A stretch of DNA of 64,000 nt from Escherichia coli (GCF_022846255.1 NZ_AP025682.1), one strand, 5' to 3'; shown: positions 49,740-64,000, numbered from the stretch's first letter. Program-made: numbers and translations. Notes: generated by a model not told the origin, from the letters alone.

Positions 49740-49954
49740 TTCAATGAATTACCGTTAAATCATTTTAAAAATCAGTAAGTTGTATCGAGTTTGTATGCTT
49801 TACTGTCATTAACTTACTGTATGTTGATCCAGTGTATTTAACCTTGATAAACTCAGTCCAGTAACACAAAGCCGCAACACATTGCATTTTGTCCCGTAGA
49901 AAAGACTTGTATGTGTGTGCTTGTTTTCTGCGCCTACGCAGATAAGGATTGAGA

Positions 49955-51352
49955 ATGCCGCGCACTGTAACACATAATCCGGATAGCCCCAATAATGACG
50001 ATGTTTTAGCCGCATCTGAAAAATGGGACGCCTGTAAACCCCCCTATACCAGCGCACACATGAAAATCTGTGTTGCTGCCGCCAAAATCATCCTCGCTGC
50101 TTCCGGCGTGGCTCGCCGTTCCAAATACGAAAAAGAGAACTATCTCCGTATCGATTTCAGCAAAGCCGGTAAGGTTACATTTTACGCCGAGTTTCCAAAA
50201 AAGATGGGCCTCAAAGGTAAAAAGCTCGGCGAGTGGCCGGAGCTCGCTATCCAGCTGGCGCGCGAAAAAGCGCTAGGTATGGCTGACGGTGGCCTGCGGG
50301 CAGAGTCCGTACATGCAGCGCTGGAAATGTACCGGGATGACCTCAAAGCCAAAGTCGCCCGGCAGAAGCTGAGCCCGGACAGTTTCACAACCTACGGGGT
50401 GCGTATCGACCGGATTAAAGCAACGTTCGGCGAGCGCGAGGTGTTCAGCGACGTAACATACAATCGGCTGGTGGAAGTGCTGGACGAGTGGATCGCTACT
50501 CGCTCGAACAATAACGCCCTGGAGTTGTTTGCCGAGCTCCGTCGGTTCTGGAAGTTCTGCGCACCTACTCTTTGCAACGGCCGCAATGTTGCCGCCAGTC
50601 TGCCAGATGATTATGTTTCCTCCCGCGTACAGAAACCTACCCCCACACGGCTTTTTACCGATATTGAATCAATCGCCCGACTCTGGCTCAATGTTGCTGC
50701 CTGCACCTCTGTACACCAGAAGAATGCTGTTCGCTTCATGATCATCACTGGTGTTCGTCCGATTAATGTCCATAACCTGCGCTGGGACTACGTTCACGAG
50801 GAGGCTGGTGAAATTGTTTATCCGGAAGGGGTTATCGGCATGCGAGGGGCTATGAAAACACAAAAGGCTTTCCGCCTGCCGATAACCCCTGAGATCCGGC
50901 GGATTATCGACGAGCAGAAAGCCTGGCGTGATTCAGTTCCTGAGTGCAACAGGGATTATGTATTTTTGCAGCCACGTGATCCAATGCAGCCATTTTCAAA
51001 ACGATCACTGGATAAGCTGGTGAAAACATACAGCCCGGACGGGGCTGTAAAAGGAATAAAACATGATGGGACTGTTAAAGGGAAAGACGGTGCATTTAAT
51101 ACGATGTGCCGTAAATTCCTTAAGAGCAATGTTATTGCCTTGATGAAGGAAAGAGGCTATTCCCGCTCAGACCGAAGGGAAATCAGCCTCCTTTGCCTTC
51201 ACCACTCCAGCAAGTCAGATGACCCGATGGCAGAACATTACGACTTTTCTGATGAGATTTTACAGGAAGAGATTGCGTTGAAGCGCGAAGCTTTCGAGGC
51301 TCACGAGCGGAGCATACTTGCGCAGGTGGCATTGCTACGGCGGCGAGGTTAA
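49955..51352 (+). CDS. Phage-type tyrosine integrase (start uncertain: TTG 49949, ATG 49955 with AAGGA RBS, or ATG 50060)
   Basis: C-terminal catalytic-domain pattern ending ...LHHSSKSDDPMAEHYDF with the tyrosine nucleophile; arm-binding-like N-terminus; position at the element boundary. Confidence 0.85.
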   Translation: MPRTVTHNPDSPNNDDVLAASEKWDACKPPYTSAHMKICVAAAKIILAASGVARRSKYEKENYLRIDFSKAGKVTFYAEFPKKMGLKGKKLGEWPELAIQLAREKALGMADGGLRAESVHAALEMYRDDLKAKVARQKLSPDSFTTYGVRIDRIKATFGEREVFSDVTYNRLVEVLDEWIATRSNNNALELFAELRRFWKFCAPTLCNGRNVAASLPDDYVSSRVQKPTPTRLFTDIESIARLWLNVAACTSVHQKNAVRFMIITGVRPINVHNLRWDYVHEEAGEIVYPEGVIGMRGAMKTQKAFRLPITPEIRRIIDEQKAWRDSVPECNRDYVFLQPRDPMQPFSKRSLDKLVKTYSPDGAVKGIKHDGTVKGKDGAFNTMCRKFLKSNVIALMKERGYSRSDRREISLLCLHHSSKSDDPMAEHYDFSDEILQEEIALKREAFEAHERSILAQVALLRRRG

Positions 51353-51549
51353 TACTGGCTGCGACATTTTTGAATAAAAGCGTCGATATTTCGGCGCTCA
51401 TAACGAACTACTTTTGCACTGAAACGAATTGGTGCCAGGATAGCCCGATGACGATGCTTAATATTCCACTCACATAGCGTTTTCTGTGTAATACCTAACT
51501 TTTGGCATACTTCATCCGGGGTGAGTAAATCGTCGGGTTTCTCGCTCAT
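51349..51549 (-). CDS. AlpA/excisionase-family small DNA-binding protein (66 aa)
   Basis: MSEKPDDLLTPDEVCQKLGITQKTLCEWNIK HTH resembling the AlpA/Xis family; convergent with and overlapping the integrase 3-prime end. Confidence 0.7.
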   Translation of the reverse strand: MSEKPDDLLTPDEVCQKLGITQKTLCEWNIKHRHRAILAPIRFSAKVVRYERRNIDAFIQKCRSQY

Positions 51550-52940
51550 GCTATACCTCTCTTTTTCATGGCATCGAGCAGGATGTCCTGCACTGTTCGT
51601 TTTGAGTTGCGCCGCTCCATCACCATTTCATCCATAGTGTCGGCAGCAATAATGTGGTGAATAAATACCGGACGATTGTGTCCGGCCTGTATCTGCCTGG
51701 TGGGGCCGATACGTTCAATAATTTGCTGATATTGCTCCAGGTCCCACCAGTGTGAGAAAAATACCAGTATATTTCCGCCGTCCTGCATGTTCAGGCCGTG
51801 GCCCGCGCTGGCTGGGTGTGCAAAGAGAACAGGAATCTTTCCGGAATTCCAGTCGCGCAGTGTCTGTGGATCCTGGTCGAGGTGACGACCGCGAGGGAAT
51901 GCTTTAAGCAAGCGTTCAAGATCGTGTTTCCAGTGATAAGCAACCAGCACAGGTGCGCCAGCTGCTTCGGTCAGTATGCTGTCCAGCGCCTGTAGTTTGG
52001 TGTCATGCAGTTCTGACCAACTTCCGGTGTCATCTGTGTATACTGCGCCGCTGGCGATTTGCAGACACTTCAGTGTCTTTGCCGCGGCGTTCGGTGCTTC
52101 GATGCCTTCGCCATTCAGCTCGAGGAACATTTCCTTTTCCATTTCACGATACTGCTGACGGGCCTTCGGTGGCATATCCACGCGGATTACGTTATGGATG
52201 GGGTCTTTGATATCGAACCAGTCGGCCGCATCCAGCGAGAGGGTTACATCGGCTAACGCTCGCTGTATTTCACCCTGTGAGTGAGCAAAAGGCTCCAGTT
52301 TGGTCCAGCTCTGCCCCGGAAACTGTATCGAGTTGAACCAGCGTGAGGTAAACGCGCCGTAAGTGCGCCCGAGACGTTGCCCCTGGTCCACAAACCACGA
52401 TTGTCCCCACAAATCTACCAGGCCGTTCGGTGCTGGCGTACCGGTGAGATTTATCCAGCGCCGGACATACTTATGCGCCACTTTGCCCAGCGCCGCCGCG
52501 CGCTTACCACCACCGCGCAGCCGGAAGGATTTTAGCCGGGTGCTTTCATCTGGAATGACAGTACCGAACGGCCATCGTTCTCCCAATTCTTCAATCAGCC
52601 AGACAAGGTTATCGTAGTTGATGGTGAACACGCTTGCGTTGCTGTTCGTCAGCGCCATAGAGCGCGCTTTGGCATTACCAATAATTGGCTGCACCTCGAT
52701 ATTGCGCAAATGTCCCCACTTCAGTGCTTCATCCGGCCATGTGCTGGCAGCCACGCGCAGCGGCGCGAGGACCAGTGCGGGGCATGTTTCTGCCCCTGCC
52801 ATAAAGAGATCTTCCAGCGCAGTGAGCGTTGCCACGGTTTTACCCATTCCCATCCCCGCCCAGATGTTGCCGCGCAGGGTTTCGGTTTCGTGGTTGATAA
52901 TGAGATCTTGGTAGGGGCGAGGTATATATTTTGGGGGCAT
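51546..52940 (-). CDS. SNF2/DEAD-like superfamily-2 helicase (464 aa)
   Basis: Walker A GMGMGKT, DExx-like VIPDESTRL, helicase C-terminal domain; AGGAG RBS 9 nt upstream of the ATG at 52940. Confidence 0.8.
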   Translation of the reverse strand: MPPKYIPRPYQDLIINHETETLRGNIWAGMGMGKTVATLTALEDLFMAGAETCPALVLAPLRVAASTWPDEALKWGHLRNIEVQPIIGNAKARSMALTNSNASVFTINYDNLVWLIEELGERWPFGTVIPDESTRLKSFRLRGGGKRAAALGKVAHKYVRRWINLTGTPAPNGLVDLWGQSWFVDQGQRLGRTYGAFTSRWFNSIQFPGQSWTKLEPFAHSQGEIQRALADVTLSLDAADWFDIKDPIHNVIRVDMPPKARQQYREMEKEMFLELNGEGIEAPNAAAKTLKCLQIASGAVYTDDTGSWSELHDTKLQALDSILTEAAGAPVLVAYHWKHDLERLLKAFPRGRHLDQDPQTLRDWNSGKIPVLFAHPASAGHGLNMQDGGNILVFFSHWWDLEQYQQIIERIGPTRQIQAGHNRPVFIHHIIAADTMDEMVMERRNSKRTVQDILLDAMKKRGIA

Positions 52941-63463: not shown

Positions 63464-63576
63464 GGTTTTACCCTCATATAGTTTAGTTAGCTTAACTTAA
63501 TCAGGGTATCGCTTTCTTGACTTGTTGGTTTAGTTTTCTTAACCTCATATAACCATATATTTCCTGGGTAACGGTT
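63464..63576. promoter_or_regulatory. Divergent promoter/operator region of the CI-like / Cro-like switch
   Basis: 113-bp AT-rich intergenic region between divergent repressor genes, with near-palindromic elements such as agttagcttaact. Confidence 0.5.
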
Positions 63577-63762
63577 ATGAAAAAAGCAGAAGCAATTGAG
63601 CTTGCAGGAAGTAAAGCGAAACTAGCGAGACTATTGAAGGTTTCCAAAGGAGCCGTATCTCAATGGGGGGAGGAAATCCCAGAGTTAAGAGCTCTTCAAC
63701 TTGAAAAGATTTTGGAGCAAAAAAATGTAGTCAAACAAAAAGGCTTAACCCATGTCCGATAG
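63577..63762 (+). CDS. Cro/YdaS-like small HTH protein (61 aa)
   Basis: LAGSKAKLARLLKVSKGAVSQW HTH; divergent from the CI-like gene. Confidence 0.7.
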   Translation: MKKAEAIELAGSKAKLARLLKVSKGAVSQWGEEIPELRALQLEKILEQKNVVKQKGLTHVR

Positions 63763-64000
63763 CAAACCATGGGGAGCTACGCCTGATGAGTGGTTTCATT
63801 TTGACCTGGTATTGGGGAGAACTGATCATCTTCTGCCAGTTGTATGTAACCCCGGTGCGACCATATCCCCTGATAGTAAACTGAAAGCGTTGGGTAAGAC
63901 GCCGAGTCGCTATAACCGGGACCGCCAGGTCACCGGTATTGCTCAATGGACCGGGCATGTTGTTACTGAGCATGATTTTGCCCGCTGGTCGAATGAACCG
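63752..64000 (+). CDS. Hypothetical phage protein, N-terminal fragment (continues beyond the window); possibly replication/primase-related
   Basis: ATG at 63752 opens MSDSKPWGATPDEWFHFDLVLGRTDHLLPVV... with no stop before the window end; overlaps the Cro-like stop. Confidence 0.45.
   Translation, partial: MSDSKPWGATPDEWFHFDLVLGRTDHLLPVVCNPGATISPDSKLKALGKTPSRYNRDRQVTGIAQWTGHVVTEHDFARWSNEP

Follow-up and report, generated by a model that had tools for sequence, protein, structure and literature searches.

The stretch of Escherichia coli DNA analyzed here (64,000 nucleotides of GCF_022846255.1, NZ_AP025682.1; hereafter the window) ends inside a prophage, and we read positions 49692-64000 as the left arm of a temperate phage of about 42 kb, integrated by its own tyrosine integrase at the ferredoxin gene yfhL, a reading to which we assign a probability of roughly 0.88. 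The phage is of an ordinary, mosaic type, and both its lineage and the yfhL site are already in public records: Stx2b prophages are reported to insert at yfhL (PMC10675304, PMC12029490), and the gene is listed among those interrupted by prophages (Bobay et al. 2013, PMC3603311). Contrary to that earlier survey, yfhL is rebuilt here, not disrupted. From about 49.7 kb to the end of the window, the arm encodes an integrase and an excisionase-like protein, replication proteins that include a family-A polymerase, and a switch of the cI/cro type. Genes were called from an open reading frame (ORF) map of 49.4-64 kb together with family searches (Pfam, PHROG, PADLOC, NCBIfam).

The evidence for integration at yfhL comes first from the host side of the junction. 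Collinearity with K-12 (recO-pdxJ-acpS-shoB-yfhL) extends to 49729 and then ends, whereas at the K-12 empty site yfhH lies 55 bp from yfhL, with both genes pointing in the same direction; the original prediction, made from the sequence before this analysis, was right that host synteny stops after yfhL. It was also right that no transfer RNA (tRNA) or transfer-messenger RNA (tmRNA) gene anchors the junction, since a search of the whole window with ARAGORN returned a single tRNA, tRNA-Glu at 20080, some 30 kb away, and no tmRNA. The integrase, which had been placed within about 200 bp of yfhL, begins 215 bp from the yfhL start codon. The features of the junction, from left to right, are these:

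49479-49739, (-): hybrid yfhL of 86 codons, with 49479-49691 from the host, 49692-49709 the core, and 49710-49739 from the phage (codons 1-10).
49692-49709, no strand: attL core TTCACACATATCACAATT, 18 bp, yfhL codons 11-16 (N-C-D-M-C-E), defined by alignment of attachment (att) sites.
49740-49954, no strand: attL arm between yfhL and the integrase gene, with YAACACAWWS motifs at 49862 and 49875.
49955-51352, (+): tyrosine integrase, 465 amino acids (PF00589 8.3e-7; phrog_1 1.4e-26).
51349-51549, (-): excisionase-like helix-turn-helix protein, 66 amino acids (HTH_17 4.9e-5; phrog_4745; weaker matches to the excisionase families phrog_66 and phrog_1553).

The att alignment took in the attL of the window, the attL and attR of a relative in strain ECONIH2, and the empty site of K-12 (attB), and in all four the 18 bp of the core, TTCACACATATCACAATT, are identical. 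On its left side attL equals K-12 and attR differs, and on its right side attR equals K-12 and attL differs. The window and K-12 (within yfhL) each have a single copy of the core, and ECONIH2 has two, as a direct repeat with its copies 41,936 bp apart. Because the host and phage sides switch at the core, codons 1-10 of the yfhL found at attL are phage DNA. The original prediction had the element start at 49740, next to yfhL; its edge lies about 40 bp further left, and the insertion falls within the gene, at codons 11-16. Of the two kinds of attachment site that had been proposed, one between genes and one at the end of a protein gene, the second stands, the end in question being the 5' end of yfhL, and the first falls to the three-way comparison of attL, attR and attB. 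An intergenic site between yfhL and yfhH that leaves yfhL intact would fit with the full-length yfhL ORF and with an integrase that begins 215 bp past it, but the sequence common to attL, attR and attB consists of yfhL codons, the native codons 1-16 sit at attR, 42 kb away, and codons 1-10 at attL differ from every empty site examined. We regard that alternative as next to impossible. Placing the true edge of the prophage inside yfhL is mainly of consequence for correct annotation.

The distribution of the integrase agrees with integration at yfhL. Among 5426 complete E. coli genomes, 159 have it, each with one chromosomal copy, and the yfhL-integrase junction is present in exactly the same number. 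Since all of the genomes with the integrase have the junction, and have it once, site specificity is strict and the element accessory; that the genes following yfhL might be core genes, a possibility under which the original prediction would have been abandoned, is thus excluded. A guide to what lies beyond the window is the prophage of ECONIH2 (NZ_CP014667), which sits between yfhH and yfhL and has the same site, backbone and integrase, with 98% identity over most of the shared region. Three GenBank entries, vB_EcoM-611R5, -606R2 and -689R2 (ON470588, ON470579, ON470582), share the site and the backbone as well, as cut-outs that end short of the integrase. Across the relatives, nucleotide identity over shared parts is about 98-99.6%. 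The copy in the window has its own combination of parts: no complete genome covers at least 80% of the window's 14.6 kb, the immunity region is not common to ECONIH2 or 611R5 (the relatives compared in detail), and a SIR2 cassette present in 4 genomes is joined with a cassette for a 305 amino acid protein present in 23, a combination that occurs in no other complete genome.

In ECONIH2 and ON470588 the early region runs on into a VapE primase gene, a Q antiterminator, a lambda-family holin, an endolysin and Rz, and the late genes inside the att pair include terminase, portal, capsid, sheath, tube, baseplate and invertible tail fibers. The expectation that structural genes and the right boundary lie outside the window is borne out by these relatives, in which structural genes, lysis genes and an attR are all present, with a unit of 41,936 bp in ECONIH2. 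They also bear on whether the element could be a phage satellite or integrative island that lacks structural genes of its own and depends on a helper. A VapE-type primase gene beside those for integrase and repressor is often the mark of a satellite, and the window itself contains no structural genes, but in ECONIH2 and 611R5 one att pair encloses both this early region and, without a break, a complete module for lysis, terminase, head and contractile tail, and we consider a satellite very improbable.

The three GenBank records named above were considered as evidence for virions and rejected as such, because host genes (yfhH, pgpC, tadA) are present in them and the integrase is missing. In ON470588.1 those host genes occupy 40486-42739, and the start of the record, which has no integrase, coincides exactly with the helicase gene's end. 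The three "phage" records of this lineage are therefore mis-bounded prophage cut-outs.

Several points weigh against the reading as a temperate phage integrated at yfhL, or against its completeness. The right 28 kb or so of this copy falls beyond the window, which shows attL alone. The Pfam match of the integrase spans only part of the catalytic domain, and comparison with solved structures found no relative for it. A search upstream of the hybrid yfhL for a promoter turned up nothing convincing, the best sites having 8 of 12 matches. In strain 89-3156 the polymerase gene is annotated as frameshifted (NZ_CP027366.1, 18655-20717 of the retrieved stretch), and IS1 interrupts cargo genes in other relatives. 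We found no virion or induction record for the lineage, and no paper that describes or cites the three GenBank phage records. Some copies, as the frameshift and the IS1 insertions show, are decaying, and this, together with the right arm being out of view and the lack of induction data for the lineage, is what one would cite in favor of a defective remnant, in which the left arm is intact and the copy is cut short or inactivated beyond the right edge of the window, such that it neither excises nor forms particles. But every ORF in the 14 kb arm is uninterrupted and equal in length to its counterpart in relatives, complete relatives have both att sites, and copies that are 98-99.5% identical over shared parts come from unrelated hosts (human, cow, gull, river water), which points to recent horizontal spread. 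We therefore consider a remnant unlikely, and continue with an integrated temperate phage as the preferred reading.

How would such a phage enter a conserved gene and leave it whole? Recombination occurs at the 18-bp core, within the 5' coding end of the ferredoxin gene, and the phage attP brings along an imperfect version of yfhL codons 1-10, such that the gene is rebuilt and the lysogen has a full-length yfhL. Compared with the K-12 sequence MALLITKKCI, the phage-borne codons 1-10 show 5 synonymous changes and 2 conservative ones (A2S, K8R), they are identical in three independent lysogens, and they are unlike any empty-site sequence examined. This pattern suggests that the protein, including its first iron-sulfur cysteine, has been maintained in the phage copy of the 5' end. 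Integration also splits yfhL from its upstream neighbor yfhH, and 17 codons of the native gene remain as a stub at the other end of the prophage. Consistent with this, the original start of yfhL at the attR of ECONIH2 (16676-16729 of the retrieved stretch) forms a 17-codon ORF directly downstream of yfhH; this stub may be transcribed into the right end of the phage. As to the attL arm, the YAACACAWWS motif occurs 4 times in 64 kb (both strands), 2 of them in the arm, and 2 more copies lie in the attR arm of ECONIH2. These may be candidate arm-type integrase sites, but the motif was defined post hoc and serves as a lead only.

Beyond the integrase and the excisionase-like gene, the arm carries a set of replication genes that runs leftward, and a primase gene on the opposite strand that is cut by the edge of the window:

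51546-52940, (-): SNF2-type DNA helicase (phrog_62 4e-156; SNF2-related or DEAD/DEAH helicase in RefSeq).
53936-54220, (-): VRR-NUC nuclease (phrog_93 3.4e-31; RefSeq name).
54220-54414, (-): small ANR-family protein (phrog_2358 2.6e-25; RefSeq name).
55476-57551, (-): family-A DNA polymerase, 691 amino acids from an ATG at 57551 (PF00476 2.5e-11; phrog_17 6.5e-124).
59221-59769, (-): DUF2815 / Gp2.5-like single-strand DNA-binding and annealing protein (phrog_112 2.4e-56; RefSeq name).
59785-61086, (-): DUF2800 exonuclease (phrog_69 4.1e-136; weak matches to Cas4 (PD-(D/E)XK) and DruK).
61089-62170, (-): two conserved early genes of unknown function, for proteins of 300 and about 49-60 amino acids (phrog_6784 1.5e-179, phrog_11981 3e-36).
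63752-64000, (+): 5' end of a VapE-type primase gene, cut by the window edge, 98.9% identical to the start of the VapE-domain gene of ECONIH2.

The leftward operon carries a T7-style replication set of polymerase, Gp2.5-like single-strand DNA-binding protein, DUF2800 exonuclease, VRR-NUC nuclease and SNF2 helicase, and the VapE primase gene points rightward. From this gene set, it is reasonable to predict that replication is partly host-independent. That a prophage here carries its own family-A polymerase, as originally proposed, is confirmed by the gene set and by the family matches of the polymerase. The match to the polymerase domain is divergent and lies mainly in residues 266-461; DNA polymerase I (Pol I) chains in the PDB match at 2e-6, and NCBIfam Pol I models also match, below cut-off. 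An NCBIfam scan of ten proteins gave no family assignment above cut-off. The N-terminus of the polymerase bears a weak likeness to 3'-5' exonucleases (PF01612 0.21; PADLOC DEDDh 5.7e-4; phrog_403 exonuclease subunit 5.2e-7).

To the right of the replication genes lies the lysogeny switch:

62771-63463, (-): cI-like repressor with a helix-turn-helix and an S24 autopeptidase motif (phrog_4 2.4e-58, phrog_6201), terminator at 62728-62746.
63577-63762, (+): cro-like regulator, divergent from the repressor (phrog_409 1.4e-16).

Lysogeny would be governed by the cI-like repressor, with its S24 self-cleavage motif (GNSM, read from the translation), opposite the cro-like gene, and because of this motif the prophage is probably inducible via the SOS response. 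With the switch in place, the claim of a self-contained replication and lysogeny set is upheld, in that polymerase, single-strand DNA-binding protein, helicase, nucleases and cI/cro were all found by family matches. Between the early operon and the repressor there are 600 bp (62171-62770) that are gene-free in the annotation of relatives; a 64-codon ORF in this gap (62254-62448, (-)) has two CxxC pairs, resembling a zinc ribbon, and no PHROG match.

When the arm is compared with ECONIH2, 611R5, 89-3156 and Yersinia phage YeP4, three variable slots stand out among the replication genes: between helicase and VRR-NUC (A), between ANR and polymerase (B), and between polymerase and DUF2815 (C). The contents of the slots differ between relatives. 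The guanine-plus-cytosine (GC) content falls to 0.32-0.35 at two places in the arm. The slots of this copy hold the following:

52955-52990, (-): slot A, terminator-like hairpin, perfect over 15 bp, downstream of the 305 amino acid gene (inverted-repeat search).
53003-53920, (-): slot A, uncharacterized protein of 305 amino acids, 35% GC, no specific match, cassette in 23 complete E. coli genomes.
54609-54627, (-): slot B, terminator-like hairpin downstream of the TIR-like gene.
54650-55411, (-): slot B, TIR-like protein, candidate defense gene PDC-S35 (PADLOC 1.3e-108; weak NCBIfam Cap12), cassette in 36 of 5426 genomes.
57579-57609, (-): slot C, terminator-like hairpin, perfect over 14 bp, downstream of the SIR2 gene (inverted-repeat search).
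57628-59130, (-): slot C, SIR2 protein, candidate defense gene PDC-S25, 32% GC (PADLOC 4.1e-158; SIR2_2 1.2e-20).

The cargo sits between the replication genes as three low-GC cassettes, each a gene with a trailing terminator-like hairpin, and two of the three match candidate anti-phage models. Of the 5426 complete E. coli genomes, only 4 have near-identical copies of the SIR2 cassette, each time in slot C. The family of the 305 amino acid protein has more than 4466 homologues and no Pfam model, and matches one PADLOC TIR-effector model weakly. Its N-terminal domain is conserved, with a flavodoxin-like fold similar to that of deoxyribosyltransferases and TIR domains, and its C-terminus is variable. 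Homologues turn up at differing positions in unrelated prophages and islands: in a lambdoid prophage of Klebsiella within the nin-type (late-early) region, flanked by replication genes and the Q antiterminator gene, and in Pseudomonas within a small integrase-bearing island. Judging by family labels and context, the cargo genes would serve the lysogen, with a presumed defensive role for all three. We offer as a tentative and rather doubtful proposal that the slots hold uncharacterized anti-phage genes, chiefly the gene for the 305 amino acid protein, and, as a separate proposal that we hold just as doubtful, that the phage-borne 5' end of yfhL may put the ferredoxin gene under phage transcription signals. 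More generally, defense or counter-defense genes carried by phages may conveniently be sought in these three slots; the genes found here are candidates only.

Cargo elsewhere in the lineage is of other kinds. In strain 89-3156 an antirepressor gene takes the place of the TIR-like gene in slot B, and the cargo slots of this strain (NZ_CP027366.1) carry Rha, Arc, Ant and BRO-N regulators and no defense-like genes. IS1 lies within the SIR2 cassette region of one relative (NZ_AP045766.1, strain 23CRST009) and within the cassette region of the 305 amino acid protein in another (NZ_AP045179.1, strain JNEC-KY203), which could mean that the cargo genes are costly.

The SIR2 and TIR-like genes flank the polymerase gene in an arrangement that resembles a split Thoeris system (ThsA SIR2 plus ThsB TIR). 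We rejected Thoeris as an identification, because the polymerase gene separates the pair, each gene is inherited without the other, and no sensor domain of the ThsA type was detected. As to inheritance, the SIR2 cassette is in 4 genomes versus 36 for the TIR-like one, and 611R5 has the TIR-like gene without SIR2. As to the C-terminal part of ThsA, ThsA models cover residues 121-305 only, PDC-S25 models match best, and SIR2_2 is the only Pfam match.

Around and within the arm, little else is of note. The only Rfam match in the window is ohsC (48804-48881, (-)), which forms with shoB (about 49.0-49.2 kb) a type I toxin-antitoxin pair; this is host DNA as in K-12, of about 40% GC, just left of yfhL. 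A search for internal repeats across 49.4-64 kb returned nothing beyond short, chance-level matches and the terminator hairpins.

How does this phage compare with known systems? Its polymerase shares 73% identity with the one in Yersinia phage YeP4 (YeP4-6), 67% with that of Bordetella phage BPP-1 and 64% with that of Hamiltonella phage APSE. YeP4 has the same early gene order, namely integrase, SNF2 helicase, two small genes in the place of VRR-NUC and ANR, polymerase, counterparts of DUF2815 and DUF2800, repressor, cro and primase, but its integrase is 397 amino acids long versus 465 here, and the cargo in its slots differs. BPP-1 and APSE are short-tailed, whereas relatives in this lineage have late genes of the contractile-tail, SEN34-like type. 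The ECONIH2 relative has a major capsid protein with 87-90% identity to its counterparts in Salmonella phage SEN34 and Hafnia phage yong1, which are temperate myoviruses with related Klebsiella prophages. This late region is seen in relatives only, and none of it falls inside the window. Phage yong1 and the ECONIH2 relative both have cI/cro, a Q antiterminator and a holin/lysozyme lysis set, but the early region of yong1 is lambda-type (Rex, CII, replication-organizer and helicase-loader proteins, Nin genes) and has no polymerase module. Two known modules are thus combined in this mosaic element: an early region that bears the polymerase, and a late region of the SEN34-like myovirus type. The contractile-tail parts (sheath, tube, baseplate) and the SEN34-like capsid of its relatives place it outside the YeP4, BPP-1 and APSE genera. 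In its manner of integration, it can be compared with the dusA-specific integrative elements, for which replacement of the 5' end of a gene by the integrating element has been documented (Farrugia et al. 2015, PMC4482086). Like the yfhL element, these enter the 5' end of a conserved gene, supply a new 5' end, and leave the original at the far boundary. Their target gene is a different one, and the likeness is one of working mode, not of family membership.

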